NCBI GenBank assembly: GCA_964589175.1
Contig: CAZPRY010000007.1
Coordinates: forward strand, 52,938-116,937
Direction: 5' to 3'
DNA length: 64,000 nucleotides
Source of the DNA: an uncultured bacterium
GTDB taxonomy: Bacteria > Fidelibacterota > UBA2242
Numbering within the stretch: the first letter of the stretch is position 1; each line of letters begins with the position of its first letter. The position numbers were made by a program, and so were the translations under genes. Below the pieces are notes generated by a model. It ran no database searches. It was not told the DNA's origin and saw only the letters and a list, made by a program, of their open reading frames with translations. Positions 5,330 to 39,254 of this stretch are shown here, one piece after another.

Positions 5330-5382
5330 AAATTCATTTCACCTATGGTGATTCCGTTATTTTACTAATTCTATTTGCCCGG

Positions 5383-9337: not shown

Positions 9338-9355
9338 ATCTCAGCTCATTCTGTG

Positions 9356-12496: not shown

Positions 12497-12563
12497 TTTG
12501 TGACAACAATTGAAGTAAAATTATCGATATTTCACCAGATCTGAATCGGCCTCCGGATCTGCT

Positions 12564-16052: not shown

Positions 16053-16481
16053 CTAGATTTCCATTTTCTCCACCCGGCGCTGATGCCGGCCACCCTCGAA
16101 GGGGGTGCTCAGCCAGGCCAGGAAAATTTCCTCGGCGTCTTCAGGTGTCACGAAATCGGCCCCGAAACAGAGCACATTGGCGTTATTGTGCCGACGGCTC
16201 AGTTCGGCAACTGCCCGGTTCCAGCCCAGCGCCGCCCGGATGCCCCTGATCTTGTTGGCCGCGATGGTCATGCCTTCTCCGCTACGGCAAATCAGAACAC
16301 CGAAATCGGTTTCACCGGAAGTTACACTGCAGCCTACTATCCGGGCATAATCCGGATAATCCACGCGCTGTTCTGAAAAGGTGCCAAAATCCAGAACCTC
16401 GTATCCCTGTTTTTGGGCGAAACTCAGCAGGTCGCCTTTCAGTTTAAAACCGCCATGGTCCGAACCAAAAGCAATTTTCAT
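16053..16481 (-). CDS. rpiB: Ribose-5-phosphate isomerase B
   Basis: MKIAFGSDHGGFKLK... is an RpiB/LacAB family N-terminus. The start ATG overlaps the upstream stop in a TAATG arrangement at 16479-16483. Confidence 0.85.
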   Translation of the reverse strand: MKIAFGSDHGGFKLKGDLLSFAQKQGYEVLDFGTFSEQRVDYPDYARIVGCSVTSGETDFGVLICRSGEGMTIAANKIRGIRAALGWNRAVAELSRRHNNANVLCFGADFVTPEDAEEIFLAWLSTPFEGGRHQRRVEKMEI

Positions 16482-17776
16482 TAATTCTGCTTTGCCTCGG
16501 CTGTAATCCAACTGTATTCCGGCATTTTAGGACGGAAGAGCTTGCGCTCGGCGCCGTCCGCATCATATTTATTCATAAACCAATCTTCATTTGTCGGGAT
16601 GAGATATTGTTTCAGAAAATCAATCCGGCTTTTGACTCCCAAATCGCCCATTTTCTGGGCTTGCAGATAATCGTCATACGCCAGTTTATAGACCAGTTTA
16701 TCTTCGAATGAGGGGGGCCGTCCGCTTGTGATCATCTCGGCGGCCTCAAAGTACACATCCGCGCGCATTTTATAGGTGAGCGCACTTTTTTCGATTGCCA
16801 GTGCTTTTTGGGACCACTCGTAAGCATCCGCCCACTTCGCGAGACGGCGGTAACCCCGAACGATATCTTCAATAATCGAGACATCTGTAAGGGCGATATT
16901 TTTATTGATATAGATGAAGGCCTCGATCGCTTCGTTATGCTTTTCCATCGTCGCGTAAATCTCGGCCATTCTCTCCCAGGCCTCACGATTGCGCATATCC
17001 AGGGCGGTCACCTTTTTGTAAACGGCGATGGCTTCGTTATAACTATACTGCTCCGCCAGAGCCCGCGCATATTCAAGGCCGTAACGGACATTGGTCGGAT
17101 TTTTCTCCCACTGCGCCTTCTGCACCGTCGTGATGTCCTTACCCAATTTCTGGTAAACAGTAATCCGGTCGTTGATAGCCTGTTCGTCATTGGGTTTCAG
17201 TCTCAGGATTTCGCTGATATAGAGCAAAACATCTTCGTAACGTTCGGCGGCAAAACCGAGTTTTACCAGACGGCGATAGTGGTCGATATTTTCCGGCTCA
17301 ATTTCTACCATTTTTTCGTATTCCCGAATTTCCAGATCGGTTTTCCCCTGCAATTGGTAGATGTAGGCAATATTTTTATGCAGAAAAATATCGTTGGGGA
17401 GGTGATCTTCTCCCTCCTGATACACATAGAGGGCACTGTCGAGATAAATGGGATTTTTAGTTGCCAATTGCTGGTAGGCGCGTCCGTAATATTGAAAAAT
17501 ATCCACCGCGCGCGTTTCTTCACAGCCGGCATTGATCATTTTTTTATAGTTACTGATCGCTCCGCGCCAATCCTGATTCTGATAGTACGAATAGGCAAAA
17601 CTGAGATACAGTTCGCATTTTACATCTCGTAACGAGTCCTGACGCGCTTTCTCCGCATTTTCGAGATTACTCATTTGCCCGGCGGCATCTGATGGTGGCA
17701 GGCAATTCACCAAATAGAAGCCCGCAAAAATCATTACAATCAGTATGGCGTATTTCCCAAGACGCGGTACCTTCAT
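16481..17776 (-). CDS. TPR-repeat protein with N-terminal signal/TM anchor
   Basis: Tetratricopeptide-like repeats run throughout. I placed the start at MKVPRLGKY (ATG at 17774-17776), which is preceded by a GGAGGAGGAG Shine-Dalgarno sequence. Confidence 0.65.
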   Translation of the reverse strand: MKVPRLGKYAILIVMIFAGFYLVNCLPPSDAAGQMSNLENAEKARQDSLRDVKCELYLSFAYSYYQNQDWRGAISNYKKMINAGCEETRAVDIFQYYGRAYQQLATKNPIYLDSALYVYQEGEDHLPNDIFLHKNIAYIYQLQGKTDLEIREYEKMVEIEPENIDHYRRLVKLGFAAERYEDVLLYISEILRLKPNDEQAINDRITVYQKLGKDITTVQKAQWEKNPTNVRYGLEYARALAEQYSYNEAIAVYKKVTALDMRNREAWERMAEIYATMEKHNEAIEAFIYINKNIALTDVSIIEDIVRGYRRLAKWADAYEWSQKALAIEKSALTYKMRADVYFEAAEMITSGRPPSFEDKLVYKLAYDDYLQAQKMGDLGVKSRIDFLKQYLIPTNEDWFMNKYDADGAERKLFRPKMPEYSWITAEAKQN

Positions 17777-17794
17777 GTCACACTCCTCCTCCAA

Positions 17795-19000
17795 TTAACG
17801 TCTTTTAAATTGTTTAAACCACAATTCACCCGTTGTAACCCCCACGTGCAACGAGATAAGGTTTTCGTTTCCGAATTGACTGCTGAATCCATCCCGGCGG
17901 GCTGCAATCAGAGCAATGTCCAAACGATTCAGACCTCCATAAAAGGGAATCCCTAATCCGACGGACACGCCGGTTTCTTTCAGGGGATCGGACTGGGAGA
18001 ATATCTCCGTCTTCTGATACAAACCAGCCCTGTAAGATAATTTTTGCAGCGCCTTCCTGTCTTTCCGAGGGGATGGACTCTTCTCGATTCCGATACCAAT
18101 CACATATGCATTTTGGGCATCCACCGGCTCATTCAGGTAGAACTCCTGAAACATGGAACCGGGCGCCGTATAATAACGGAAATCCGCCACAACAAGCAAG
18201 TCGTGCGGCAGTAGCCGGGCGCAGCCCAGGGAAAATGTCGAGGGATAATCCAGAGACCGGTTTTCCTGGGTACTGTCCGGACCGTACTGATAATCCAACA
18301 GAAAATCATATTGGAAATTAATATTCTGATCCCAGTAGGCCGCAATGGTCGTTTTTTGTGGGCGATCCGTCCAGGCCAGTCCAAGGCCGGTTTGCACTCC
18401 CCGCAGGTTATAGCGTCTCTGCTGGGAGATATCGATATCGTCGTCCTGCATGAGATCCACGTCATGCGTTGTGGCGATGTTGCCGTAGAAAAACCTGCCT
18501 ACGAGGCCCAGGCTCAGGTTCGGGGACAGTTTATAGCCGAATCCCGTGTAAAGTTCGGAAATTCCACCAACCGTCTTCTTGGTCGATTGATAGGTATATA
18601 CCGTATCCGCATATGGCGCGTCACCGGTATAAATTTGCTCACTCGACATGCGTGTTACCGGGCGCATTCCCATGGCAAAGCCCAACTTCTTTCCAATCGG
18701 CATTTTAAAAGCAAAGCCCATGAAACGGGTCATCGATCCCGTATAGTCCCGCTCGGCGGCATTGACAAACTGGGTGTTCAACTGCCCCTGCATGGAGGTT
18801 GTCAGAAAACCGTGCCACAATGCCGGGCCCAGGGTATTCAGACCGATCGAGTCGCGCGCGGCGCTTCCCGAAAAGCCCATTCCGATATTACGTACCGGAA
18901 CCGAAGGGGAACCCATTCCGAATCCGTACGACGAGTAGATCGAATTCTGAGAAAACAGAAAACCGGTGATCAGGATAACGGCAAGGACAATTTTACGCAT
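17795..19000 (-). CDS. Outer-membrane beta-barrel protein, a second PorV/PorQ-like paralog
   Basis: 401 aa. Signal peptide followed by an N-terminal GFGMGSPSVPVRNIGMGFSGSAARDSIGLNTLGPALW block resembling the 12564-13787 protein. The alternating beta-strand composition is the same. Confidence 0.5.
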   Translation of the reverse strand: MRKIVLAVILITGFLFSQNSIYSSYGFGMGSPSVPVRNIGMGFSGSAARDSIGLNTLGPALWHGFLTTSMQGQLNTQFVNAAERDYTGSMTRFMGFAFKMPIGKKLGFAMGMRPVTRMSSEQIYTGDAPYADTVYTYQSTKKTVGGISELYTGFGYKLSPNLSLGLVGRFFYGNIATTHDVDLMQDDDIDISQQRRYNLRGVQTGLGLAWTDRPQKTTIAAYWDQNINFQYDFLLDYQYGPDSTQENRSLDYPSTFSLGCARLLPHDLLVVADFRYYTAPGSMFQEFYLNEPVDAQNAYVIGIGIEKSPSPRKDRKALQKLSYRAGLYQKTEIFSQSDPLKETGVSVGLGIPFYGGLNRLDIALIAARRDGFSSQFGNENLISLHVGVTTGELWFKQFKRR

Positions 19001-19001
19001 G

Positions 19002-20264
19002 CTAATTCGTCTCTTTAATGGTAATTACTTGCAGATAGGGCGCCCGGGCCGTGTCCGTTTGGGCGGACGCATACAGACTCAGAACCGACAGATCCAGGGT
19101 CGAAGGTGACGACCAGAGCAGGAATCCAAAATTCTTCTGTTCGGTACTCATATATTGCTGAACCGTATAACTGATCTTGAAAATCGCCTCACCATCGCCG
19201 GGCTTCAGCGAACAGGTGGCGATATAATCGCTCGTACTTGTCGTCAACGCCTCATCGTACCATTCGGTCGAATCCAGCTGCGTCAGGTATAGGTAAAAAT
19301 TCTCGTTGTAATTGAAGGTCTGCGTTGTATCCACTTTAAGGTGAAGGATGGCTTCTCCGACGATTTCGTTTTTATCCGTGAGCGCATCCGTGAGATCGAT
19401 TTTTAGAAAGGAACGGTAAGCCTGCCCCTTGCTGACATAGCTATGGCCGGGGTCCGGTGCAATGTCAAAGAAGCGTATTACGGAAATATCTTCCGAAGCA
19501 TAGGTCGTCGTGGAGACCGTATCGCCCTCATAAAAGAAATCCGCGATCAGCGCCGGCGCATAGTAGGAATTTTCGGCGGAGGTAAAGGCCTGCATCAGCG
19601 GTTCGGTCGTATCCGCAGCCTGCAGCAACAAGCCGTAATTATACAGGGAATCGCCATTATACCAGTCATCGTACCAGCCCCGGAAAACAGAATTCGGGAT
19701 TTCAATTTCGATGGAATCATTATTAGAGTAGGCAAAAGTACCGAGCAGTTCCCGATCAAAACCCTCGAGTGACCAGGTGTCCGGAAAAGTATCCTGCGCC
19801 CAGTTGACATGACTATCGGAAGAGAGCAGGTATACCGCAATTTCGTGGTTGTGGACATTCAGCGAATCGTAAGGCAATTCCGATTCGGTGCGAATCACAA
19901 AAATGGAACTTATCAGCGAATCCACCAGGCTACTCAATCCCGTGAAATCGTTAAAACGGATCAGCGCATAAGCCGACGAATGTTCATCTCTGCCGGCCAG
20001 CAGCCGCAGACTCGACTTCAGTTTGGGGGTCAATATCTGAGTTGAATCGACGATGTGATCGGCTTCAATCCTGACGTCCGAAAACAAAAGGGGGGCGGTA
20101 TTGGTCTCCTCATACGGTATTTGTTCCGAACAGGAGGGCATTAGAGACAGAGCCGCGAACGCAATCACCAGGGCACCACGTACGATTCGGTTTCTATTTT
20201 CGGATTGAAGCAGCTCCCGACTGCCGCCGGATTTATATACTCTCGATAATCTTAATAATTTCAT
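19002..20264 (-). CDS. Hypothetical lipoprotein
   Basis: Signal peptide with a possible lipobox (LSLMPSC). The protein is acidic, Ser/Thr/Tyr-rich and likely periplasmic or surface-exposed. It is tightly packed in an operon with the flanking genes. Confidence 0.55.
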   Translation of the reverse strand: MKLLRLSRVYKSGGSRELLQSENRNRIVRGALVIAFAALSLMPSCSEQIPYEETNTAPLLFSDVRIEADHIVDSTQILTPKLKSSLRLLAGRDEHSSAYALIRFNDFTGLSSLVDSLISSIFVIRTESELPYDSLNVHNHEIAVYLLSSDSHVNWAQDTFPDTWSLEGFDRELLGTFAYSNNDSIEIEIPNSVFRGWYDDWYNGDSLYNYGLLLQAADTTEPLMQAFTSAENSYYAPALIADFFYEGDTVSTTTYASEDISVIRFFDIAPDPGHSYVSKGQAYRSFLKIDLTDALTDKNEIVGEAILHLKVDTTQTFNYNENFYLYLTQLDSTEWYDEALTTSTSDYIATCSLKPGDGEAIFKISYTVQQYMSTEQKNFGFLLWSSPSTLDLSVLSLYASAQTDTARAPYLQVITIKETN

Positions 20265-22848: not shown

Positions 22849-23004
22849 ACGATTCTCCTACTTTTTCCGATCCAAATCTACGGATTTTTGCTTTGCCGGA
22901 GAAGTCTGAATTTACCGGGCCACGGTTGAACGGGGGAACCATTCTTCTGCCGCTCGAATATAAGTCGTTGATAATCTCAGTATTTTTTCTAATTTCGAAA
23001 TCAG

Positions 23005-24972
23005 ATGAGATGTTTAAAAACCAGCATTGTTTTCTTCCTAATTGCCTTGCCCCTGATCGGAATACGGGCGCAGTATGACGAGGACTGGCTCGATCGGGAG
23101 ATCCAGACCAAGCAGCGGCTTCTGCAGGACCGCCGGGCGCTGGCTAAACTGGCCGCGAGTACCAACGCCGCCGATTATGACATCGGTTATTACGGTCTCG
23201 ATCTCCATGTCAACGTCGATTCACAGACAATTGCCGGCTCCGTTACCATTCGTGGAAAATCGCGTATAGATTCTTTAAACCTTGTTGAACTGGACCTCGC
23301 CAGCGGACTGAATGTCCATGCCGTGACTGGCCAGGCTGTCTCTTATCAACACGGCAACAACATTCTGCAGATTCGGCTGCCTGAAGCGCTCTCAACAGGT
23401 GAAGGATTTGAATTCACCATCGATTATTCGGGTTCGCCTTTAACGGGCGGGTTCCAGGGTTTCAGTTTCGGTAGCTACAACGGCAGCCCGATAGTATCCA
23501 CCCTCAGTCAGCCCTATTATGCCTACGGCTGGTTTCCCTGCAAAGACCGACCCAACGACAAGGCCGATTCCGTCGATATCACCCTCACCGTCCCGGCCAA
23601 CCTGGAGGCCGTCGCGAACGGGACCTTGAAGAAAGTCGAAAATAATTCCGACGGCACGCGCACCTATTTCTGGCAGGAGCGCTACCCGATCGCCACCTAT
23701 CTGATTTCACTGGCCGTCTCGGAATATACTTCCTGGCAAGATACATACGTCTCACAGGACAGCAGCCTGACGATGCCGGTGATGTACTGGATCTATAAAG
23801 ACATGCCCTCCCCTTACACAACCGACTTGGCCTTGACCCCCTCCATGATTTCATTCTTTTCAAGTATTTGGGGCGAATATCCCTTCATCAAGGAGAAATA
23901 TGGCCAGGCACAGTTCTCCTGGGGCGGCGGCATGGAGCACCAGACCTGCGCCAGCATGGGCAGTTTTAACGAAATGCTGATCTGTCATGAACTGGCGCAT
24001 CAGTGGTGGGGCGATATGGTCACCTGCGCCAACTGGAAAAACATCTGGCTCAACGAAGGTTTTGCGCGCTATGCGGAAGCGCTCTGGCGTGAGCATATTG
24101 ACGGTAAAACGGGCTTAGAAGCATATATGCAGATCCTCAACCGGCCGCAAAGCTGGCAGAACAGCAGTGTCTATATCACCGACACAACCCGGGTCAGCGC
24201 CATCTTCAATCGCATCGTTTACGATAAAGGCGCCTGGATTCTGCACATGCTTCGCAAGATCGCAGGCAAGGAAAATTTCCGCGCGATTTTTCTGGCATAC
24301 CGCGAGCGACACTCCATGGGCGCCGCCGACACCGAAGATTTTCAGCGCGTCTGTGAAGAGGTCAGCGGCCTCGATCTTGACTATTTCTTTTCGGAGTGGG
24401 TTTACGGCCTCGGCCAGCCGCATTACCAGGTGAGCTGGCACCGGGTCCCGGCCTCCGACGAGCACTGGACTGTCAGCGTCCGAATCCAGCAGATTCAGAC
24501 CACGGCAACTTATTTCTCGATGCCGATCGAACTCTATCTGCAGACCGAAACGGGCGATACGATCATCACCGTCTGGAACAGCCGACGCCTGCAGGACCAC
24601 GAATTCCAGATCAACAGCAAACCGCTGGAATTGATTATCGATCCCGATAACTACATCCTGAAAAGCGTCGCCTATTCGACAGTCGATCCCGATCTGGTCA
24701 CAAATCCGACGGAATTCGAACTGTCCGGGGCTTACCCGAATCCGTTTAACGGCTCCACCCATTTCCGGCTCTACCTGCCCCATGACATCCTGGGGCAACT
24801 GCGCGTCTACAACCTGGCCGGTCAGCAAGTGGCCTTGATCGGGGACGGCCGGTTTCGATCGGGATATCGCACCTATCAATGGTCGCCGACGACCCAAGCA
24901 TCCGGAATTTACTTTATCCGGCTGGAATCCGACGATCAATTTCTGGAACGGAAGGTGTTGTACCTGAAATAA
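23005..24972 (+). CDS. M1 family aminopeptidase (aminopeptidase N-like) with a T9SS C-terminal sorting domain
   Basis: Signal peptide. GGMEHQ (a GxMEN variant), HELAHQWWGD, and WLNEGFARY providing the third Zn ligand. The C-terminal ~85 aa (AYPNPFNGSTHFRLYLP...LRVYNLAGQQVALI...SGIYFIRLESD...KVLYLK) is typical of a T9SS CTD. Confidence 0.85.
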   Translation: MRCLKTSIVFFLIALPLIGIRAQYDEDWLDREIQTKQRLLQDRRALAKLAASTNAADYDIGYYGLDLHVNVDSQTIAGSVTIRGKSRIDSLNLVELDLASGLNVHAVTGQAVSYQHGNNILQIRLPEALSTGEGFEFTIDYSGSPLTGGFQGFSFGSYNGSPIVSTLSQPYYAYGWFPCKDRPNDKADSVDITLTVPANLEAVANGTLKKVENNSDGTRTYFWQERYPIATYLISLAVSEYTSWQDTYVSQDSSLTMPVMYWIYKDMPSPYTTDLALTPSMISFFSSIWGEYPFIKEKYGQAQFSWGGGMEHQTCASMGSFNEMLICHELAHQWWGDMVTCANWKNIWLNEGFARYAEALWREHIDGKTGLEAYMQILNRPQSWQNSSVYITDTTRVSAIFNRIVYDKGAWILHMLRKIAGKENFRAIFLAYRERHSMGAADTEDFQRVCEEVSGLDLDYFFSEWVYGLGQPHYQVSWHRVPASDEHWTVSVRIQQIQTTATYFSMPIELYLQTETGDTIITVWNSRRLQDHEFQINSKPLELIIDPDNYILKSVAYSTVDPDLVTNPTEFELSGAYPNPFNGSTHFRLYLPHDILGQLRVYNLAGQQVALIGDGRFRSGYRTYQWSPTTQASGIYFIRLESDDQFLERKVLYLK

Positions 24973-25165
24973 ATCCCTGAACCGCTCCCGTTGAAGTAGC
25001 GTTCGAACGTTCCCTGGGGAAAATAGATGCGTATTGCACTGAAAAATAATGTAGCTTTTTATGACTTTAAGAGTCTAAATTTTGTTGTGCCTGAAATGGC
25101 AAAAAAAATGACCGTTTTTTATGAATGACAAGGAACAAAAACCACTCATCAAAGTATAGACCACT

Positions 25166-28100
25166 ATGAAGAAAATATTTTTAGTGCTTGTATTCGTTGC
25201 GCTGTGCCTTCCTTTAATCGGGTACTCGCAAAATTTTGGAAAAAATAAGGTCCAGTACGACGATTTCAACTGGTCTTATATTCAAACGCCGAATTTTGAC
25301 ATTTACTTCTACGACGACCGCGAGAAACTGGCGGAATTTGCGGCCCCGATCGCCGAACAGGTATTTACCGAGATCCACAGTATACTCAACTGGCGGATGC
25401 ACAAACGCACATCACTGATTCTGTATGCCTCGCACAGCGATTTTCAGCAGACCAATGTTCTGCTGGATTATCTTACCGAAGGCACCGGCGGATTTACGGA
25501 GCTTTTCAAAAACCGGGCCGTTGTCGCTTTCGACGGCTCGTATTCCGATCTCTGGCACGTCATCCGCCATGAGCTTGTCCACGTTTTCGTGAATGACATG
25601 ATTTACGGGGGCAACATCCAGAGCGTAATCTCGGGAAGAGTCCGCCTGAACATTCCGCTGTGGATGAATGAAGGCTTGGCGGAATACATCTCGATGGGCT
25701 GGGACACCAACGCCGATATGATCCTCCGTGATCTGGCCACGATGAACGAAATTCCGACCATCGATCAGCTAAACTACTATATGGCCTATAAAGGTGGACA
25801 GTCTGTCTACCGCTTCATTGCCGACAAATACGGCGAGCCAAAAATCGGCGAAATCTGGGACAAGATGAAAAGCCGTAAAAATGTCGAAAGAGGTTTTCGG
25901 GCATCGATCGGTATGGATACAAAAGAATTGACCGAAAAATGGCATCGCTGGCTGCGACGGGAATATTGGTCGGACGTGATCGACCGCAACGAGCTCGGAG
26001 AAATCTCAACCAAATTGACCGACCATGAAAAATTGCGCAATTACTTTAATACCAGCCCGGCAATCTCCCCGGCCGGAGATCAGGTTGCTATAATGTCGGA
26101 TCGCAAAGGCTACGCTGACATTTACCTGATTTCCATTATCGACGGCAAGGAAATCAAGAAAATTCTCAGCGGCCAGAAAAAGCCAGACCTGGAAGAGTTG
26201 AAATGGCTCTATCCGCGCCTGAGCTGGTCGCCCGACGGAAAGAAGATCGTGTTGGCCGTGAAGAGCGGCGAGAGCGACGGTTTAATTATCCTGGATGTCG
26301 AATCGGGCAACACCGAAAAGCACAATTTCGACGGAATCGAGGAATTGTTCACTGCCGCTTGGTCACCTAACGGACAGAAAATCGCCTTCGTCGGATTACA
26401 GAATGACCGCACCGACATTTTCCTGTACGACCTGTCCGCCGATGAGATTACGCAACTAACCGATGATCAGTATTCCGATTTTGAACCGGCCTGGTCGCCG
26501 GACAGTAAACAGTTGATTTTCTCATCGCAAAGAGGGCTGGAAGGCGACAGCCTGGGACTGGCTGGCGAGACCGACCTGTCCTCAGTCGTATTCCGCCAGA
26601 AAGACCTGTTCATCTATGATCTCGAAAGCAGTTCAACAAGGCGTGTTACCAGCACGGCCTGGAATGAGAATTATCCCGTTTGGGCCAACACTCGCAACGC
26701 CATTTTCTACACATCCGACAATTGCGGAATTTCCAATTTGCGCCTGCTGGATCTGGACACGCACGAGGACCGTACTCTCACGAACGTGATTACGGGCCTT
26801 TTCCAGCCCAGTCTGACCTTGGATGATTCCCGGCTCGTGTACGCCGGCTACGAAGATGTCGGCTGGGACATTTTTGTTATCAGCAATCCGTTGGAGATGG
26901 AAGACCTTTCGGCCAAAATCCGTCCCACAAACTACGCCATTGAGTTAGATGACCTATTGAATAGACCGGCTGTTGTCGTAGAGAAGGATACAACGAAATT
27001 ATCCCTGACGGAAGCGTCCTATACGAAAAACGTCGAGACGGACGCCAGTTATACCAATTATATTTTCGCGCCCGGATATGAGGATTACCAGCCGGAACCC
27101 ACCCCGGAAGACAGTGCAGGGATGAGCCCGGATTCGCTAAAATTTAAGACGGATGACGGCGACTATATCATCAACCAGTACAAAACCAAATTCACGCTTG
27201 ATTTGATCGACAGCCAGGCCGGCTATAACACTTTCTGGGGATTTCAGGGCACGACCGTCTTCGCCTTCAGCGACTTACTGGGCGATCATCGCTTCATGCT
27301 CGGAACGGAACTGTACATCGATCTCGAAAACAGCGATTACTACCTGGCCTATGAGTATCTCCAGAAACGGACCAACTATTCGGTAATGGGGTTCCACACG
27401 GCCAATTTCTTCGGACTCAGTTTCTACCAGGTGTTGCGCCTGCGAAATTACGGAGCGGATTTTTCCGTTTCACGACCATTCTCCAAATTCTCGCGCGTCG
27501 AACTCGGCGCAACTTCCTATAATGTCGAACAAAAGCTGATCAACCTGCTCACGGGTACAACCGATTACCATCGCAGCATCAACACGATTCTGCCCCGCAC
27601 TGCATTGATTTATGACAATACCCTCTGGGGCTACTTTTATCCCGTCGACGGCTGGAGAATGCGTCTGGATTTTATCGCCAGTCCGAAATACAACAACAAC
27701 AGCCTGCAATTTAATACGCTCGAAATGGATGCGCGCCGTTACTTCAAACTCAATCGCGAGTACTCCTTCGGATTGCGTTTGACAGCCGGTCTGAGCGAGG
27801 GTTCGAACGCCCAGCGATTCTTCCTCGGCGGCGAATCCAACTGGATAAACCAGCAATTCAAGCAATACCACAATTACGAAGATGTCGAATCGATCTACTT
27901 CTCCGAGTTCGTCACGCCCCTGCGCGGCGCCCGCTATTACGAAAGAGAGGGCGACCGTTTCTTTCTCGGCAATTTCGAATTTCGTTACCCCTTCATTAAA
28001 TATCTGGCCATGGGCTGGCCGATACCACTGACTATGGCGAGTATTCAGGGAGCGACTTTTCTGGATATCGGTTCGGCCTGGTTCGGAGATAAATTCCAGC

Positions 28101-28276
28101 CCTTCGGTAAAGATCCCTTCCGCGGCCTCTATATGAACGACCTGGTAAGCGGCTTCGGATTCGGGGCGCGCTTTTTCTTCGGATATTTCATTCTGAAAGT
28201 TGACGTCGCCTGGCGTTACGACTTCGACCAGGTCTCGGCGCCGCGCTACTATTTCTCGCTGGGTACGGATTTCTAA
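25166..28276 (+). CDS. Omp85-superfamily outer-membrane protein with an N-terminal Peptidase_MA_2-like zincin domain and TolB/PD40 beta-propeller repeats (paralog of 6299-9337)
   Basis: 1036 aa with a signal peptide. HELVHVFVNDM...WMNEGLAEYIS; PD40 repeats (WSPDGKKIVLAV, SPNGQKIAFVG, WSPDSKQLIFSS). The C-terminal barrel carries the Omp85 motifs RFFLGGESN, PLRGARYY and GFGFGARFFFGYFILKVDVAWRY, and ends ...SLGTDF. Confidence 0.75.
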   Translation: MKKIFLVLVFVALCLPLIGYSQNFGKNKVQYDDFNWSYIQTPNFDIYFYDDREKLAEFAAPIAEQVFTEIHSILNWRMHKRTSLILYASHSDFQQTNVLLDYLTEGTGGFTELFKNRAVVAFDGSYSDLWHVIRHELVHVFVNDMIYGGNIQSVISGRVRLNIPLWMNEGLAEYISMGWDTNADMILRDLATMNEIPTIDQLNYYMAYKGGQSVYRFIADKYGEPKIGEIWDKMKSRKNVERGFRASIGMDTKELTEKWHRWLRREYWSDVIDRNELGEISTKLTDHEKLRNYFNTSPAISPAGDQVAIMSDRKGYADIYLISIIDGKEIKKILSGQKKPDLEELKWLYPRLSWSPDGKKIVLAVKSGESDGLIILDVESGNTEKHNFDGIEELFTAAWSPNGQKIAFVGLQNDRTDIFLYDLSADEITQLTDDQYSDFEPAWSPDSKQLIFSSQRGLEGDSLGLAGETDLSSVVFRQKDLFIYDLESSSTRRVTSTAWNENYPVWANTRNAIFYTSDNCGISNLRLLDLDTHEDRTLTNVITGLFQPSLTLDDSRLVYAGYEDVGWDIFVISNPLEMEDLSAKIRPTNYAIELDDLLNRPAVVVEKDTTKLSLTEASYTKNVETDASYTNYIFAPGYEDYQPEPTPEDSAGMSPDSLKFKTDDGDYIINQYKTKFTLDLIDSQAGYNTFWGFQGTTVFAFSDLLGDHRFMLGTELYIDLENSDYYLAYEYLQKRTNYSVMGFHTANFFGLSFYQVLRLRNYGADFSVSRPFSKFSRVELGATSYNVEQKLINLLTGTTDYHRSINTILPRTALIYDNTLWGYFYPVDGWRMRLDFIASPKYNNNSLQFNTLEMDARRYFKLNREYSFGLRLTAGLSEGSNAQRFFLGGESNWINQQFKQYHNYEDVESIYFSEFVTPLRGARYYEREGDRFFLGNFEFRYPFIKYLAMGWPIPLTMASIQGATFLDIGSAWFGDKFQPFGKDPFRGLYMNDLVSGFGFGARFFFGYFILKVDVAWRYDFDQVSAPRYYFSLGTDF

Positions 28277-28427
28277 GACGGGTTGCGAAATCCGGCCGGC
28301 GTCACCGCAAATTGCCATCATCCCGCAAAAGGAACGATATTTTCGTTTTCATCGATATACGCTAAATTATACAGACGTCAGGGTTGAATTTGTAAGCAAT
28401 CCCTGCAAAATGAAGGATTTATAAATC

Positions 28428-29768
28428 ATGACGGAATTAATAGCCAAACCGATTGTCGTCTACGGCGGTCCGCTTTTTAATGGAATCGATCAATTCTGGG
28501 AAAACGGCGCGATCTTCATCGAAAACGGCAAGATTGCCGCGATCGGGACGGAAGAAGAGGTATTCGAGCGCATTCCCAAAGCTCTCGACATCGATACCTA
28601 CGACAGTATGGGCAATGTGATCTTTCCGGGATTAATCAACCTGCATCACCATTTTTACCTGTCCCTGGCGAAGGGATTTCCGGCCACCGGACCGCTGGAC
28701 AGCTACCAGGACCGCCTGCGGAATTTCTGGTGGAAACTGGATAAAGCGCTCGATCTGAACGCGATCCAGCTGTCCGCGCTGGTATCGATCCTGGATCTCA
28801 TCCGCTCCGGCGTCACGACCGTTTTCGATCACCATTCCTCTCCGCTGATCGTCAAGAACAGCCTGGAAAGTATCGTGGGAGCCGTCAAACGTTCCGGGAT
28901 TCGGGCCAACCTGTGTTACGGCGTTTCGGATCGCCACGGCGAACGGGTCATGCACCAGGGCCTGGAAGAGAACCTGGCGGTTATGGAACGCTACACCGGG
29001 GATAATAATATCAGCGGCACGATGGGACTCTATGCCAATTTCGCCCTGTCGGAAGAGTCTCTGAAAGAAATTGCCGGACGCTATCAACCGGAGATGGGCA
29101 TCCATATTCTCGTCGGAGAGGATAGCACCGATCTGAAACACAGCCAGGACCTGGGTTATGACGGACCGGTAGATCGCCTGCAGCATTTTGGATTGCTGAG
29201 CAATAAAGCGCTCCTGGTTCACGGATTGCATCTCTCCCCAAAAGACCTGCGCCTGATTGCCGAAAGCGGAGCGACGCTGGTCCACAATCCCGAATCGAAT
29301 ATGCTGCACAACGTCGGAAGTTTGACTCTGCCTTTGCCGGAAGACATCAGCACCGGCTTCGGCACCGATGGACTCAGCAGTAATCCGCTCAACGCACTCC
29401 GCAGCGCCTACTATCACTACCGCAGCACCGGCCTGGAAGACAAGGTCATTATTCCCGCTCTTATGAACGCCCTTTTCGAAGGCAATCGCAAGGCCGCCGG
29501 CCGCTACTTCAACGGCTATCCCGGCGTTCTGAAAGAGGGTACTCGCGCCGATATAACGGTTTTTGCATATATGCCCCTCAGTCCATTTCAATCCGATACA
29601 CTCTTTGAACACCTCATCGCAGGCATTTCACAGCGCCAGGCCGGCATGGTCATGGCCGGCGGGCACATCATTTTTTCCGAACATGCATTCTACACCCTCG
29701 ATGAGGAGGTGGTCCGCTCGGAAGCCCAGAAAGTCGGTAAGTTCGTGTTCAACCGTTATCTGGCCTGA
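28428..29768 (+). CDS. Amidohydrolase family protein (SsnA/chlorohydrolase-like aminohydrolase)
   Basis: 446 aa with the metal-binding HxH motif (GLINLHHHFY). The overall length and layout match the SsnA / cytosine-deaminase-like subgroup. Confidence 0.75.
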   Translation: MTELIAKPIVVYGGPLFNGIDQFWENGAIFIENGKIAAIGTEEEVFERIPKALDIDTYDSMGNVIFPGLINLHHHFYLSLAKGFPATGPLDSYQDRLRNFWWKLDKALDLNAIQLSALVSILDLIRSGVTTVFDHHSSPLIVKNSLESIVGAVKRSGIRANLCYGVSDRHGERVMHQGLEENLAVMERYTGDNNISGTMGLYANFALSEESLKEIAGRYQPEMGIHILVGEDSTDLKHSQDLGYDGPVDRLQHFGLLSNKALLVHGLHLSPKDLRLIAESGATLVHNPESNMLHNVGSLTLPLPEDISTGFGTDGLSSNPLNALRSAYYHYRSTGLEDKVIIPALMNALFEGNRKAAGRYFNGYPGVLKEGTRADITVFAYMPLSPFQSDTLFEHLIAGISQRQAGMVMAGGHIIFSEHAFYTLDEEVVRSEAQKVGKFVFNRYLA

Positions 29769-35257: not shown

Positions 35258-36001
35258 TTAAAATTGCCCGACAGTGAAGAACTGCTTCACGGCCGAGATG
35301 CCCGATATTTTGGCTTGCTCCACGCTCCCGCTGAAAAGGATTTTACCGTCTTCCAGGAAAATAACCCGGTCGGCGACACGGTGGATACTGGCCAGCTCGT
35401 GGGTTACGATTACAATCGTCATATTCAACTGGTCGCGCAGTTTCAGAATTAATTCATCGAGCGAAGCACTGGTCAGCGGATCCAGGCCGGCCGACGGCTC
35501 GTCGCAGAAAAGAATTTTAGGATCGAGGGCGATGGCACGCGCCAGGGCGGCCCGCTTTTTCATACCGCCCGATAATTCGGACGGCAGGAGCTGCAAAGCA
35601 TGCCCCAGATTCACCAGGCCCAGTTTCACCTCGACGATTTTTTCGATGAGATCGCGGGAGAGGCGCGTATGCTGTTCGAGCGGCATGGCTACGTTGTCGG
35701 CCACGCTGATCGAGTTGATCAAGGCGCCGTTCTGGAACAGCATCCCGATGTGGATCAGAATCGCCTCGAAAGCGTTCTCGTCCATTCCGATGGTTTCCTG
35801 ACCGAGGATTTTCACTGATCCGCTTTCGGGATCGTGCAGGCGCAGGATATTTTTCAGCAACGTGGTTTTCCCGCAGCCGCTGCCGCCGATAATCACGGAA
35901 ATTTCGCCCGCGTAAATATCGAGATTGATATCACTCAGAATGACCCGTTCGTCATAACGGGCGATCATATTTCTGACTGCGATGATCGGGTTCTTTTCCA
36001 T
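35258..36001 (-). CDS. mlaF: ABC transporter ATP-binding protein, MlaF-like
   Basis: Walker A GGSGCGKTT, signature LSGGMKKRAALARA, Walker B ILFCDEPSAGLD. About 250 aa with no TM domain. Confidence 0.85.
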   Translation of the reverse strand: MEKNPIIAVRNMIARYDERVILSDINLDIYAGEISVIIGGSGCGKTTLLKNILRLHDPESGSVKILGQETIGMDENAFEAILIHIGMLFQNGALINSISVADNVAMPLEQHTRLSRDLIEKIVEVKLGLVNLGHALQLLPSELSGGMKKRAALARAIALDPKILFCDEPSAGLDPLTSASLDELILKLRDQLNMTIVIVTHELASIHRVADRVIFLEDGKILFSGSVEQAKISGISAVKQFFTVGQF

Positions 36002-37189
36002 TTAAATCATATAGAAGAGACTAAACAGGGCATCCAGAATAATCACGGCGAAAATAGAGGCGACGACCGCTTTGGTGGTGACTTTGCCGACGCCTTCCGC
36101 ACCGCCCTTGACTTGGAAGCCGAAATAGCTGCCGATGATGACAATCACCCAGGCAAAGAAGATGCTTTTACTGAAGCCGATCAGCAAATCCTCGGCATTC
36201 AGAATTAAGATGGTCTCATTCATGTAGGCCGACACCGATAGCCCCAGGTAAGTCAGACCGATCAGGACGCCGCCTAAAATACCGGCCGCGATCGAGAGCA
36301 TGACCAGGAGCGGCATACAGAAAGTCATGGCGTGCAGTTTGGGAATCACCACATAACGGACGGGGTGAATCGCCATCATCTTCAGGGCATCGATCTCTTC
36401 GGTCACTTTCATCGTGGCAATCTCGGCCGCGATGGCCGATCCGCTGCGGCCCGCCACCAGAATCGCCGTCATCATCGGCCCCATCTCCCGTACCATCGAT
36501 ACCGCCAAGAGATCGGCGACATAGATATTCGCACCGAATTGCCGCAGCTGCGCCGCCGATTGCAGGGCCAGGATCAAGCCCAGGATGAAAGACAGCAGGC
36601 CGACGATACCGACCGCATCCGCGCCGATCAGCAGCGCCTGCTGCAGGACGGCCCCCTTGCGCTGTCCGCGATGGTTAAAAAGCCCGATAAAAGACCAGAA
36701 GGCGATGTCCGACGTCAGGTACATCCCCTCGACGAATGCTTTCCAGGCCTGGTAGAAATTATTCCCGATAGCCTCTAAGAAATTCGGTGAGGGTTTTTTC
36801 GCGGCGGGTTTCAGGCGTTTGCCTGAGAAGGTGCTGATCGTATCCCGGAAATGATCCGGAACGCGGCTCAGTTCGATATCGGGCTTCCGGAGCTTTTCGG
36901 CGATCCAGTCCAGAAAGGCCACGCCGCTGCTGTCCAGCACCGTTAGCGCCTGCAGATCGATGCTCTTCGCCGCAGTGGCATCCAACCGCGAAAACTGTTT
37001 CGTCAGGAGCGGAACGGTCTCTTTGGTCAGTTCCCCTTCGAGCTGAATGCGCGCGCTCTCTTTATCGAATGATAATCCCACTTTCTTCTCTTCATCCTCC
37101 CCGGTTGTGTCCGGAACTGAAAGATTTGCCTCAGCGCAGGAAATAGGTGATGCGCAGGAACAGCGTGTGCCGGTCGACAATATACTCAT
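36002..37189 (-). CDS. mlaE: MlaE-like ABC permease fused to an N-terminal STAS (MlaB-like) domain
   Basis: The N-terminal ~110 aa match a STAS anti-sigma-antagonist fold (LTVLDSSGVAFLDWI). The C-terminal ~260 aa form an MlaE/YrbE permease. The first 59 nt overlap the upstream lipoprotein gene; the true start may be GTG near 37081. Confidence 0.8.
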   Translation of the reverse strand: MSILSTGTRCSCASPISCAEANLSVPDTTGEDEEKKVGLSFDKESARIQLEGELTKETVPLLTKQFSRLDATAAKSIDLQALTVLDSSGVAFLDWIAEKLRKPDIELSRVPDHFRDTISTFSGKRLKPAAKKPSPNFLEAIGNNFYQAWKAFVEGMYLTSDIAFWSFIGLFNHRGQRKGAVLQQALLIGADAVGIVGLLSFILGLILALQSAAQLRQFGANIYVADLLAVSMVREMGPMMTAILVAGRSGSAIAAEIATMKVTEEIDALKMMAIHPVRYVVIPKLHAMTFCMPLLVMLSIAAGILGGVLIGLTYLGLSVSAYMNETILILNAEDLLIGFSKSIFFAWVIVIIGSYFGFQVKGGAEGVGKVTTKAVVASIFAVIILDALFSLFYMI

Positions 37190-39254
37190 TGCCGTCTTCG
37201 GACTGTTTATTGCGCAGACGGATTTTGTAATCCAGGGATATGTATTTGAATAATTTCAGATTGAATACATTTTCCCACTCCACCGCCATATCCTGGTCCG
37301 GATTGAACGGAAACAGGAAATCGGCGGTTGTGTAATAGGTCAGGTTGAGCGGCAGCTGGAAATTGCCCACCACCGATACCTCGGTACCCTCCTTGTAGGC
37401 CGATTCCTTCTCGATATACACTTTATAGACCTCGCTGCCGATTGTCTCCGGCACATCCGAAAGATTGAATACATTGTCGTTGATATCCTGGCGCATACCG
37501 AATCCGAAACGCAGGTTCAGGTTGGCCTGCGCCGTGTTGAAAATCCGGTAGTTGATGCCGACGCCCTCTTTCAACACCAACGGAAAAAAAGGCTGCTTGA
37601 TGCTAACCTTATCCACGCCAATCCTGCGCTCCAGGTCGTTCCCGTTCAGGTCTTTTTTGACATAATTAAAATCACCGGCGCTGTAAAAATTTTCCATGAA
37701 TAAATGGCTCTCGGTATCGAATCTTCCGTAGAAACCGATGTTTTTGAAGAAATAATAGATAAACGTATTCTTGAGATAAAAATCATCCGTTGAAATCCGG
37801 AACCCGGTATCCGTGGTTTTGGTCGTCCCCAGTTCGATCAGGTTGCGCATGGTATAGTGAATCGGCCGCTTATCAAAGATCACGGTATTGTCGAACTGCG
37901 TATTCAGGGTGACGGTGACCTCATGATTCTCCTTATCCTTCTCGTTATCACTGTTCATGTTGGCGTTGCCGTGAACGGCATTCGAGAAGCGCCAGTTTTC
38001 CAGAGAGGTGAGCAGGTCGCCCTCTTCCAGAATACCGGCTCCGAGCATGGTGGTCGGGTTACCCTCGTCATCGGTATCAACCACGATCGTGAACTTCTTG
38101 ACCTGACCTTCTTCGAGGAAAACCGTGCCGAAATCGCGGTAAGTATTGAACGTCTCTCCGTTAATCGTGATTTTGTACAGGGCGGGTTTCAGAACCCAGA
38201 TTTTCTGCTGTTCGCCGAGCTCCTTCTCGGCCGGAAATTCGGTTCCGTAGCTCATGCCGCTCTCCGAATCGAAAATCTCATAGCGCACTTTGGCGAAGTT
38301 GCGTTTCTCATCAATAACATCCACGATCAGGCAACCCCAGACGGGCTCGATAATCGTTTTATAGCGTGGAATGATCTCGATCTCCTCAGTACCCATCAAC
38401 TGCGCAACGCTGCCAGATCCGTATTTCACGGAATACTTGCCTTCCTCAAGCGGCATGGGTACGCCCATCTGCCCGGCGATTTCCTGCCCCTCCGCATCGT
38501 ATATTTTATACGGCGGTTCGTTATTGGTCTTGGTAATCGAAGGCAAAAGCAGCGATCCCATTCCCTGCGATTCCCCCTCGTCGGGAACCATTTCGACGAT
38601 TCGCTCTTCATCTTTTATTTGATCGGATTTGAGGATGGGCCGTTTCTCCCGGAAACTGATGATGATCTTCTCGATGAATTTGTCACTCTCCTCCATGATC
38701 ATATCGTTGATAATCTGCACATACGTCTCGACTTCATCATCCAGCAAAACCCGCTCACGATTCATCGAATGCTGCACCTGGTAGGTCTGCTGATCCATGC
38801 GGCGGAGATAAAAATCCATGTTCAGCCGGGCCTCTTTGACGGATTCGGATTCATAGAGTTCGATGTTGTTAATCTGGGTAAAAACAACGTAATCCGGCCG
38901 GGCTTCGGTGATTTCACGTTCCACGTGCCGGAATACGTTATAACGTTCGAGCCGTTTGCCGATCAGGTTGGGAATGATCTCCGACAATTCCACGGCCCAG
39001 ATATCATGGCTGGAATAGGTGATCCGCGGTCCGAAATGACGCACAACCAGTTGTTTGCGATCGTAGGTATTCGGAATCTTGGTATCTTCGACGATTGCCG
39101 AAAAATTAAAGGGCTGGGTTTGAATCAATTCCGGCTTTTCGGAATAGGGAAAATACTCCAGCACATAATAATTGGTCGGCACCGCCTGTCGAAACGAACA
39201 TCCCACCATCAGGAAAAGCAGCAGGAACGGGATAACTTTATGTATAGATTTCAT
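37131..39254 (-). CDS. Lipoprotein with an N-terminal PqiC/YmbA-like (DUF330, ABC-transport auxiliary) domain fused to a ~500-aa beta-strand-rich C-terminal domain
   Basis: Lipobox LMVGCS. The N-terminal ~190 aa (NYYVLEYFP...) resemble PqiC-type MCE-associated lipoproteins. The C-terminal part has alternating hydrophobic/polar dyads and an aromatic-rich terminus (...RITYFLR), which suggests an OM beta-barrel. Confidence 0.6.
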   Translation of the reverse strand: MKSIHKVIPFLLLFLMVGCSFRQAVPTNYYVLEYFPYSEKPELIQTQPFNFSAIVEDTKIPNTYDRKQLVVRHFGPRITYSSHDIWAVELSEIIPNLIGKRLERYNVFRHVEREITEARPDYVVFTQINNIELYESESVKEARLNMDFYLRRMDQQTYQVQHSMNRERVLLDDEVETYVQIINDMIMEESDKFIEKIIISFREKRPILKSDQIKDEERIVEMVPDEGESQGMGSLLLPSITKTNNEPPYKIYDAEGQEIAGQMGVPMPLEEGKYSVKYGSGSVAQLMGTEEIEIIPRYKTIIEPVWGCLIVDVIDEKRNFAKVRYEIFDSESGMSYGTEFPAEKELGEQQKIWVLKPALYKITINGETFNTYRDFGTVFLEEGQVKKFTIVVDTDDEGNPTTMLGAGILEEGDLLTSLENWRFSNAVHGNANMNSDNEKDKENHEVTVTLNTQFDNTVIFDKRPIHYTMRNLIELGTTKTTDTGFRISTDDFYLKNTFIYYFFKNIGFYGRFDTESHLFMENFYSAGDFNYVKKDLNGNDLERRIGVDKVSIKQPFFPLVLKEGVGINYRIFNTAQANLNLRFGFGMRQDINDNVFNLSDVPETIGSEVYKVYIEKESAYKEGTEVSVVGNFQLPLNLTYYTTADFLFPFNPDQDMAVEWENVFNLKLFKYISLDYKIRLRNKQSEDGNEYIVDRHTLFLRITYFLR

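Follow-up and report, generated by a model that had tools for sequence, protein, structure and literature searches.

Omp85 proteins build the outer membrane in all diderm bacteria and in organelles. The locus described here raises the question of what an Omp85-type barrel would be doing when it is fused to a zinc peptidase and a beta-propeller, and why two proteins of this kind, referred to below as paralogs A and B, are encoded in one 64-kb stretch of DNA (the window, meaning the whole stretch that was analysed). Paralog A is confirmed as a real gene, and P0001, the protein called on the public contigs, is identical to it (1036 aa). The motifs that a sequence-only reading of the window had listed are all in its translation, namely HELVH (residues 135-139), WMNEGLAEY (166-174), RFFLGGESN (884-892), PLRGARYY (918-925) and GFGFGARFFFGYFILKVDVAWRY (996-1018), and the protein ends ...SLGTDF. 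The features of A are as follows; conservation was scored over 71 orthologs.

25166..28276, forward strand: paralog A, with zincin, PD40 propeller and Omp85 barrel; complete ORF that starts with ATG and has its stop inside these coordinates
25166..25228, forward strand: predicted Sec signal peptide, residues 1-21; hydrophobic helix at residues 2-19 of the AlphaFold2 model
25253..25990, forward strand: gluzincin domain, residues ~30-275; Pfam Peptidase_MA_2 at residues 64-264, E 2.6e-11; mainly helical in the model
25568..25582, forward strand: HELVH, the motif for zinc binding and catalysis (H135, E136, H139), 100% in the 71 orthologs
25661..25687, forward strand: WMNEGLAEY motif; E169 and E173 are each 100% in the 71 orthologs
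26033..26890, forward strand: TolB-like PD40 beta-propeller, residues ~290-575, with about six blades from the strand count
26891..27190, forward strand: linker, residues ~576-675; two short helices (589-612), then a low-confidence stretch, with pLDDT below 50 at 602-657
27191..28273, forward strand: Omp85-type beta-barrel of 16 strands, residues 676-1036, from the AlphaFold2 model, a TamL match and a barrel-only search
27917..27940, forward strand: PLRGARYY, at the position of the Omp85 loop-6 motif (V/I)RG(Y/F), on the long loop that joins strands 11 and 12 of the model
28058..28072, forward strand: FLDIG, an FxDxG motif in strand 13; F965 97%, D967 100% and G969 97% in the 71 orthologs
28256..28273, forward strand: SLGTDF, a beta-signal-like C-terminus with a terminal Phe; S1031, G1033 and D1035 are invariant in the 71 orthologs

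The Pfam domain matches of A are far beyond chance. The residue that follows the signal peptide, Q22, is invariant in the 71 orthologs, and we infer that A would be exported by Sec and cleaved before this glutamine. The first domain scores 44.2 bits against Peptidase_MA_2 (PF13485, cut-off 32.4), which places A among the gluzincins of MEROPS clan MA, and HExxH is present in 77 of the 78 A-type genome loci. The third zinc ligand is likely to be E169 or E173. Since both the HExxH and the downstream Glu are invariant, we predict that the zincin is an active enzyme under selection. A profile of this domain found no match better than E 0.6 in the PDB.

The propeller is recognized by Pfam PD40 (E 4e-21) and by several related matches, including precomputed Tricorn_N and Tricorn_2nd, Pfam DPPIV_N and, by Foldseek, 1k32 and 8wt1. 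A profile of the whole protein against PDB sequences returned propeller relatives alone and did not reach BamA. Public annotations name such proteins 'biopolymer transporter Tol' or 'Tol biopolymer transport system component', which would make A a TolB-type part of the Tol-Pal system. However, TIGR02800 reaches 115.4 bits where the cut-off is 343, with a match limited to the propeller; TolB is a soluble periplasmic protein of ~430 aa that has neither a peptidase domain nor a barrel; and no tol or pal genes adjoin A. The domain architecture of A already contradicts this identity, which we regard as extremely improbable, and so a widespread mis-annotation is corrected here.

The linker is flexible and ~90 residues long. 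Its low-confidence part of 45 residues is probably disordered, judging from the model (pLDDT 79.4 and pTM 0.72 for the whole protein), and it leaves room for domain arrangements other than the one modelled. Neither a Pfam POTRA family on A nor a POTRA-like fold in the modelled linker was found, and the corresponding segment of B (residues 580-623) is almost without regular secondary structure in its model. The missing POTRA is an exception that is shared by the published noNterm, Metallo and WD40-like Omp85 subfamilies (PMC4104836).

The assignment of the C-terminal domain was less direct. In the model, 16 long strands run across residues 676-1033, as expected of an Omp85 barrel, and the NCBIfam model for TamL, an Omp85 lipoprotein (NF052279), matches residues 922-1017 (E 1.5e-6). 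A local Pfam search of the last 376 aa returned neither PF01103 (Bac_surface_Ag / Omp85), not even with E relaxed to 10, nor any other family; precomputed PF01103 matches exist for a minority of the A orthologs listed and for P0006. Because the local PF01103 search is silent, the Omp85 label of A draws on three sources: the structure model, the match to TamL and this minority of PF01103 matches. The strand-13 motif of Omp85 proteins is presumably represented by FLDIG. In loop 6, P918, R920 and G921 are 100% conserved in the 71 orthologs (P918-[V/L]-R920-G921), as the Omp85 pattern would predict, and the final residue is F in 40, W in 18, L in nine and Y in four (aromatic in 62 of 71). Conservation of the loop-6 and strand-13 motifs and of the aromatic terminus indicates that the barrel is under selection. 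Going by published descriptions (PMC12611786), PLRGARYY would be the counterpart of the BamA L6 motif. We therefore hold the zincin-propeller-barrel architecture of A and its family assignment with high confidence.

Heinz & Lithgow 2014 (PMC4104836) had catalogued this architecture as the 'WD40-like Omp85' subfamily, to which A is matched on that basis: both have a TolB-like PD40 propeller before a BamA/TamA-like barrel, and both are without POTRA. Table S2 of that study lists architectures with PF07676 and PF01103, and its Table S3 has TolB together with N-terminal aminopeptidase-like template matches. Its members come from Caldithrix, Rhodothermus (two copies), Cloacimonas and Chloroherpeton (e.g., H1XQ58, D0MEQ5, D0MCT8 and B0VIY2), and this FCB range is the same as that found for the relatives of A. 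However, the published members form a single cluster, whereas here there are two deep ortholog groups in different genomic contexts. The subfamily was still called uncharacterised in 2024, and Omp85 subfamilies in which enzymes replace POTRA are an acknowledged blank (PMC11116518). BamA, TamA and TamL have in common with A the 16-strand barrel, the RG of loop 6, the FxDxG of strand 13 and the aromatic C-terminus; they differ in that A has no POTRA, that the part of it predicted to be periplasmic consists of an enzyme and a propeller, and that its sequence similarity to them is below what the local PF01103 scan detects. The new Bacteroidota BAM subunits BamG, BamH, BamM and BamP were considered as homes of the A/B family, which is not among them.

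Among GTDB species representatives, at least 559 have a relative. With the barrel alone as query and E<=1e-10, a search gave 884 clusters at 50% identity; among the best 150 of these, the barrel occupies the C-terminus or sits close to it, and in proteins of ~980-1170 aa, which are presumably full-length, it is the very end.

A second copy within the window is ordinary by itself. The sequence-only reading had taken the two proteins to be diverged paralogs of one architecture that arose by duplication and then specialised, each beside a different cargo gene. Paralog B and the genes around it are:

6299..9337, reverse strand: paralog B, 1012 aa, with HEFAH, a GLRGY loop 6, a 16-strand barrel at residues 624-1010 and no POTRA (model and Pfam)
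9356..12496, reverse strand: M6i, a T9SS-dependent M6-like inactivated metalloprotease with a CTD, the partner of B (NF052323 full-length, E 1.7e-155)
12564..13787, reverse strand: outer-membrane protein of the PorV/PorQ family, heading the B cluster (NF033709 256.6 bits, cut-off 90)
5383..6309, reverse strand: DUF5683-like protein of 308 aa, always immediately downstream of B (Pfam and synteny)
4526..5329, reverse strand: BamD (YfiO), conserved downstream in the B cluster (TIGR03302 128 bits, cut-off 81.4; synteny)

The shared architecture holds, as the model of B shows the same domain order as that of A and the same number of barrel strands. B scores 25.5 bits against PF13485, under the cut-off of 32.4, yet it keeps the motif, and its loop 6 reads G-[L/M]-[R/K]-G-Y, with G871, G874 and Y875 invariant. 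In pairwise comparison the similarity extends well outside the PD40 repeats: BLASTP aligns residues 1-609, including the entire zincin, at 21% identity (E 2e-32), and a profile-profile alignment with hhalign pairs A 20-1011 with B 14-946 over 836 columns (probability 100%, E 5.4e-59) and reaches into the barrel. A and B are true paralogs, because they are homologous along almost their entire length. The outcome that the sequence-only reading had named as its own refutation, a failure to align beyond the PD40 repeats, did not occur.

A local or recent duplication, however, is not borne out. When homologs are partitioned by BLAST bit scores, the 78 A-type orthologs reach 760-1396 bits with A against 76-161 with B, and for the 76 B-type orthologs the values are 640-1320 bits with B and 63-159 with A. 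A-type genes of 40-42% identity are present in Calditrichota (full-length, 41-42%), Ignavibacteriota, Bacteroidota and one Chlorobiaceae-labelled MAG, and B-type genes are also found in MAGs labelled Bacteroidota or Ignavibacteria. Both groups are clean, and both span Marinimicrobia to Ignavibacteria/Bacteroidota. Therefore, these sequence comparisons imply that the A/B split is older than these phyla and that A and B represent two ancient sister lineages; their 16-kb spacing is a feature of the gene order of the host lineage. The WD40-like subfamily would be large, anciently split in two, and under selection at the catalytic residues as well as in the motifs of the barrel.

The third part of the earlier claim, a different cargo gene beside each copy, is true of both in the window but is a conserved pairing for B only. 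Among the 41 window ORF products tested (>=150 aa), only two carry a T9SS type A sorting domain (CTD), and these are the upstream neighbours of A and B. For A, this neighbour is:

23005..24972, forward strand: M1 aminopeptidase with an intact HELAH and a T9SS type A CTD, upstream of A (profile and motif scan)

The upstream neighbour of B has a CTD in 65 of 72 loci, and it is always the same M6-like protein. HExxH is absent from it here and in 59 of 59 orthologs, so that M6i is, to judge from its sequence, catalytically dead; its NF052323 score of 519.6 bits is under the curated cut-off of 600. The order PorV-M6i-B-DUF5683-BamD is conserved, and PorU is upstream of PorV in the one distant B locus that was scanned. 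A literature search on the PorU-PorV-Omp85 cluster, DUF5683 and Peptidase_MA_2 found nothing relevant.

By contrast, a CTD protein is upstream of A in five of 73 loci (three on the same strand) and downstream in none of 70. A reading in line with the earlier claim, that A is dedicated to the adjacent M1 protein and might, for example, process, anchor or export it, could draw on the position of the M1 gene directly upstream on the same strand, on the conserved CTD partner of the sister protein, and on the retention of the M1-A pair in the nearest relatives. However, the pair is confined to those relatives (loci L006 and L009-L011, A identity 60-65%), and LMWPc takes the place of M1 already at 59-60% identity. 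In addition, the intergenic gap between M1 and A is 193 nt, and a family of at least 559 species with shifting neighbours is unlikely to serve a single lineage-specific cargo. A promoter and terminator scan of 22800-28500 gave counts at the shuffle level and is uninformative on co-transcription of M1 and A. Dedication to the M1 protein is, on balance, quite improbable.

The other neighbours of A differ among phyla. MlaE-MlaF lies 19 nt downstream of A in Calditrichota, TamB-like and heptose genes are upstream in Ignavibacteria, and RadA-Tgt is downstream in most Marinimicrobia. The signal for envelope biogenesis in these neighbourhoods is weak and phylum-dependent. Several candidate genes turned out to be something else. 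For example, a gene of ~720 aa that lies upstream of A in Ignavibacteria and was considered as TamL is RNase R, and only the 1540-aa gene that precedes it is weakly TamB-like in the one locus checked. Likewise, the 249- and 389-aa genes upstream of A in most Marinimicrobia, considered as Lpt/Lol ABC parts, encode a metallophosphatase and a HEAT-repeat protein. The 838-aa protein at 54754..57270, considered as BamA, is a radical SAM protein, and no BamA was found in the 64-kb window.

Given this wide distribution, and neighbours that vary but return to envelope genes, A would have a housekeeping role in the FCB superphylum; the copy described here belongs to a Marinimicrobia/Fidelibacterota genome. 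The best explanation, to which we give about an even chance, is that A is a periplasm-facing metallopeptidase of envelope housekeeping that is anchored in the outer membrane. The location of its N-terminal domains is the firmer part of this proposal. Neither TIGR04183 nor the Pfam CTD (PF18962) matches A, B is likewise without a CTD, and A has no lipobox. Since Omp85 barrels begin and finish on the periplasmic side, and A lacks both a CTD and a lipobox, the peptidase and propeller are probably periplasmic and tethered under the outer membrane. The closest precedent is PlpD/FplA ('type Vd'), in which an Omp85 barrel likewise carries an enzyme on its N-terminal side. In PlpD this enzyme domain is periplasmic (PMC11116518), the topology that we propose for A. 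However, the enzyme of PlpD is a patatin lipase and is accompanied by one POTRA, whereas A has neither and instead carries a zincin and a propeller; the N-terminal parts are not homologous.

The same precedent could be turned the other way, in that A might be a surface protease whose barrel exports its own zincin and propeller, as was first proposed for type Vd. A resembles PlpD in that its enzyme domain comes first and the Omp85 barrel closes the protein, and the model of A has a long flexible linker. Marinimicrobia invest heavily in the degradation of extracellular proteins, which would also suit a surface enzyme. Against export, the PlpD passenger stays periplasmic, and once an Omp85 barrel is complete, moving folded domains through it is considered unfavourable (PMC11116518); a zincin and rigid propeller of ~550 residues would be a poor passenger; and FCB surface enzymes travel by CTD/T9SS or lipoprotein export, for which A carries neither signal. 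We consider a surface location improbable.

For the periplasmic peptidase that we favour, the following steps are envisaged. BAM would insert the barrel through its C-terminal signal. The propeller may provide a platform for binding, or a filter by size, through which unfolded chains or peptides gain access to the zinc. Tricorn and the S9 peptidases (DPP-IV/acylaminoacyl) likewise combine a PD40-type propeller with a peptidase and are thought to gate unfolded substrates, but they are soluble serine peptidases, whereas A is a membrane-anchored gluzincin. At the membrane, the zincin would go on to trim envelope proteins or clear them. BepA at BAM offers an analogy of function only: it is a periplasmic zinc protease at an Omp85 machine that acts in outer-membrane protein quality control. 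BepA is a separate, soluble M48 and TPR protein that docks on BamA, whereas A has another zincin family fused to its own barrel. A proteostasis function of A is accordingly a tentative suggestion, somewhat short of an even bet.

Conservation of its motifs suggests that the barrel does more than anchor the protein and may bind clients directly. Carried further, this leads to A as a specialised Omp85 insertase or translocase, the BamA-BamB-like fusion proposed by Heinz & Lithgow (PMC4104836), in which the barrel would chiefly assemble or export particular clients, the propeller would offer a docking platform and the zincin would only mature the client. The RG of loop 6 and the FxDxG of strand 13 are important in BamA and invariant or nearly so in A; a mere anchor would need neither, and a client-handling role fits them at least equally well. 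Moreover, a TamB-like gene is two genes upstream of A in Ignavibacteria-type loci (its identity coming from one locus), and the sister B adjoins BamD. However, A has no POTRA, the module that binds clients or partners in all characterised insertases, its invariant catalytic residues make the peptidase central instead of accessory, and no conserved client gene adjoins it. An insertase with an accessory peptidase is thus unlikely, and the housekeeping peptidase is preferred.

Under the latter, A would be the generalist lineage and B the sister that was recruited into a T9SS-linked cluster. An unknown Omp85 variant thereby yields two testable hypotheses, one for A as an envelope housekeeping protease and one for B as a T9SS- and BamD-linked module. 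The two may also be read jointly as a pair of undescribed outer-membrane machines that couple an Omp85 barrel to proteolysis, a reading that we hold doubtful, if a little less so than the insertase. B would then belong, as an accessory so far unrecognised, to the apparatus for type IX secretion and attachment in FCB phyla. A would be its general counterpart, a 'BamA plus BepA' device complete in itself, which recognises barrel proteins or lipoproteins at the outer membrane and clears or matures them. As a minor observation on the B cluster, orthologs of its DUF5683-like protein end in F or W in 64 of 70 cases.

The gene studied and its partner in the window are the following.

25166..28276 (+): paralog A, ATG start, 1036 aa
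6299..9337 (-): paralog B, 1012 aa, with HEFAH and WLAEGVAQF and a C-terminal end ...ILFGL

The translation of A holds HELVH, WMNEGLAEY, RFFLGGESN, PLRGARYY and GFGFGARFFFGYFILKVDVAWRY and ends in ...SLGTDF, and so every motif string that the sequence-only reading had quoted for this gene is present. Several public metagenome contigs encode a 1036-aa protein identical to A, and the source labels of its close homologs assign the window to the Marinimicrobia (Neomarinimicrobiota/Fidelibacterota). Pfam matches Peptidase_MA_2 and PD40/DPPIV_N in A as well as in B. Residues ~30-275 of A are a gluzincin domain, helical for the most part, for which no PDB relative was detected by sequence profile. 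H135, E136, H139, E169 and E173 are invariant among 71 orthologs and the HExxH motif is kept in 77 of the 78 species-level A-type loci, which indicates that the enzyme is under selection. A begins with a hydrophobic leader, and the invariant Gln22 that comes next is read here as marking a predicted signal-peptidase I cleavage site; CTD (type IX sorting domain) and lipobox-type signals are absent from A. Three long antisense ORFs (274-326 aa) occur nearby, at 24115..24939 (-) in the M1 peptidase gene, 27470..28321 (-) in A and 28632..29612 (-) within an amidohydrolase gene; these are probably by-products of coding sequence with 52% G+C and not genes.

Judged from sequence alone, the case for an Omp85 identity of the A C-terminus is thin. 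A Pfam scan of the last 376 residues gave no match, even at E=10, and a profile of whole A run against the PDB did not reach BamA. One match comes from NCBIfam, whose TamL model hits residues 922-1017 at E 1.5e-6, and a minority of the listed A orthologs have a precomputed PF01103 match. P918, R920 and G921 are invariant and occupy the position of the Omp85 loop-6 (V/I)RG(Y/F) motif. F965, D967 and G969, conserved at 97-100%, form an FxDxG motif that is presumably the Omp85 strand-13 motif. Of 71 orthologs, 62 end in an aromatic residue (F, W or Y) and the other nine in L. The barrel motifs singled out beforehand are thus the ones that A orthologs conserve. Pfam finds no POTRA domain in A; in its place the predicted structure has two short helices and a low-confidence stretch (residues 576-675). 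Strand 13 of B (residues 917-924) reads YVETGNAW, the A counterpart being FLDIGSAW. Across the B family the FxDxG Asp is replaced by Gln or Glu, and the loop-6 Arg by Lys in half of the orthologs, and so these two positions may have changed together in B.

The architecture of A is known and common. Among the ten Omp85/TpsB subfamilies of Heinz and Lithgow (2014) is 'WD40-like', with a TolB-like propeller ahead of a BamA/TamA-like barrel and no POTRA; their tables also list an aminopeptidase-like template match and members from Caldithrix, Rhodothermus (two copies), Cloacimonas, Chloroherpeton and others, and they proposed a BamA-BamB-like fusion (PMC4104836). A barrel-only search of A against 1.84 billion cluster representatives leads to the same conclusion, with 1541 matches at E<=1e-3, of which 884 have E<=1e-10. 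The barrel lies at or near the C-terminus in the best 150, and at the very end in the presumed full-length proteins of ~980-1170 aa among them. The WD40-like subfamily was still among the uncharacterised ones in 2024 (Hanson et al., PMC11116518), and A is, by its architecture, a member of it. The name 'biopolymer transporter Tol', frequent in public records, is a mislabel made at the level of domains, and a TolB role for A is less likely: the TolB model does match A, but at 115 bits where the cut-off is 343.

A and B are paralogs along essentially their whole length, as had been claimed. BLASTP aligns residues 1-609 at 21% identity (E 2e-32), covering the zincin domain and the propeller, and comparison of the two family alignments by hhalign spans 836 columns, A 20-1011 to B 14-946, with a probability of 100% (E 5.4e-59); the proteins can therefore be aligned outside the PD40 repeats too. 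The AlphaFold2 model of B (pLDDT 88, pTM 0.85) has the domain order of A, 16 barrel strands (624-1010) and no POTRA, and it matches TolB, S9-peptidase propellers and TamA.

The reading of A and B as recent local duplicates is contradicted by their orthologs, which form separate full-length sets, each at 40-65% identity. The sample comprised 78 A-type loci, with each GTDB species represented by a single genome, and 76 B-type loci of metagenomic origin. A-type proteins score 760-1396 bits to A and 76-161 bits to B, and B-type proteins 640-1320 bits to B and 63-159 bits to A, a clean partition. The A-type search matched at least 559 species; genes at 40-42% identity occur in Calditrichota, Ignavibacteriota, Bacteroidota (Chitinophagales) and a Chlorobiaceae-labelled MAG, and B-type genes in MAGs labelled Bacteroidota and Ignavibacteria. 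This spread implies that the split predates these phyla. In none of the other A-type loci does a B-type gene lie within 10 kb, and the 16-kb spacing in the window reflects chance in the local gene order and does not indicate recent duplication.

Each copy had also been proposed to sit beside its own CTD cargo gene. Within the window this is so: the T9SS type A sorting domain (TIGR04183, NCBIfam) is found in two of the 41 ORF products of at least 150 aa, and both genes are direct upstream neighbours, one of A and one of B. Using a CTD profile built from the loci, we then counted such neighbours across both groups. In B-type loci the upstream neighbour carries a CTD in 65 of 72 cases, all on the same strand, and the downstream one in 0 of 67. 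For A-type loci the counts are 5 of 73 (three on the same strand) and 0 of 70, and CTD genes are 1.7% of all genes there. The pairing with a CTD gene is conserved for B, and for A the cargo reading fails. Dedication of A to the neighbouring M1 aminopeptidase (23005..24972 (+)) is accordingly less likely; the two genes do adjoin in the nearest relatives (L006, L009-L011) but solely there, and at 59-60% identity a different gene is already in that place. It is the sister, B, that points to a conserved T9SS-linked cluster.

3933..13787 (-): B cluster, PorV-family, M6i, B, DUF5683-like, BamD, NadD
9356..12496 (-): M6i, inactivated M6-like protein upstream of B, 1046 aa
5383..6309 (-): DUF5683-like protein, always 3' of B, 308 aa

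Among 80 metagenome loci, nearly all that are long enough to show this order retain it, down to 35% identity of B. The CTD partner M6i is no ordinary cargo. Its whole length matches the NCBIfam model 'T9SS-dependent M6-like inactivated metalloprotease' (E 1.7e-155), but the 519.6 bits fall short of the curated threshold of 600; HExxH is absent from the window copy and from 59 of 59 orthologs, and the one-time zinc site is now TFAFMTGFYLGLPGLY. Distant Ignavibacteria/Bacteroidota-type loci have a ~1300-aa gene upstream of PorV, which in L154, the sole such locus scanned, is a genuine PorU sortase, with a score of 996 bits; there PorV is above the equivalog cut-off and M6i reaches 891 bits. The DUF5683-like protein has no NCBIfam family and may itself be an outer-membrane barrel protein, since 64 of 70 orthologs have F or W as their last residue. 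No published description of the cluster was found in the literature searched, and the zincin-propeller-Omp85 family is not among the components of the recently solved Bacteroidota BAM complexes (PMC12611786).

The neighbourhoods of A lean faintly and non-uniformly to envelope biogenesis. Most Marinimicrobia have RadA-Tgt-Nudix downstream. In ten loci (Calditrichota L035, L045, L046, L053, L054, L056, L059 and L061, also L041 and L055) MlaE lies directly 3' of A, 19 nt away in L045 and followed by MlaF in most, an arrangement suggesting that the A ortholog shares an operon with the transporter for outer-membrane lipid asymmetry. Ignavibacteria- and Chitinophagales-type loci (L060, L063, L065, L068, L069, L071, L074, L079, L081, L083 and L084) share a gene-size run upstream of A; in L069, the sole one scanned, it consists of HldE, a heptose adenylyltransferase-like protein, a ~1540-aa weakly TamB-like protein (53 bits) and RNase R. 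The window has its own MlaF and MlaE, at 35258..39254 (-), with a 707-aa protein matching ABC_trans_aux, DUF481 and DUF3078, an unusual fused partner for a Mla-type transporter.

The domain order, intact catalytic site, conserved barrel motifs and wide vertical distribution of A are shown by these data, and a working scheme can be proposed. A would be exported by Sec, and its barrel would be inserted by BAM. Omp85 barrels start and finish on the periplasmic side. The zincin and propeller would thus be tethered in the periplasm beneath the outer membrane, much as PlpD, another Omp85 protein, keeps its enzyme domain in the periplasm (PMC11116518), and a surface-exposed passenger is less likely. 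The propeller might gate or present unfolded chains to the zinc site, a likeness we propose to tricorn and S9 peptidases, and the enzyme would trim or clear envelope proteins at the membrane. In function this would resemble BepA at BAM, except that here the enzyme and the barrel are one protein. From its conserved motifs in loop 6 and strand 13, this barrel is probably more than an anchor, which makes a client-handling Omp85 role the main rival to periplasmic proteolysis. With two lineages separated and the cluster of B defined, the function of this subfamily is open to experiment.

Two other gene pairs in the window deserve mention. Adjoining proteins of ~400 aa each (17795..19000 and 19002..20264 (-)) have no Pfam family, and relatives of 36-46% identity keep them next to a TPR protein (16481..17794). 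Tandem CNNM/CorC-type proteins (60841..62085 and 62085..63338 (-)) have C-termini that also match the model of GldE, which is gliding motility-associated.
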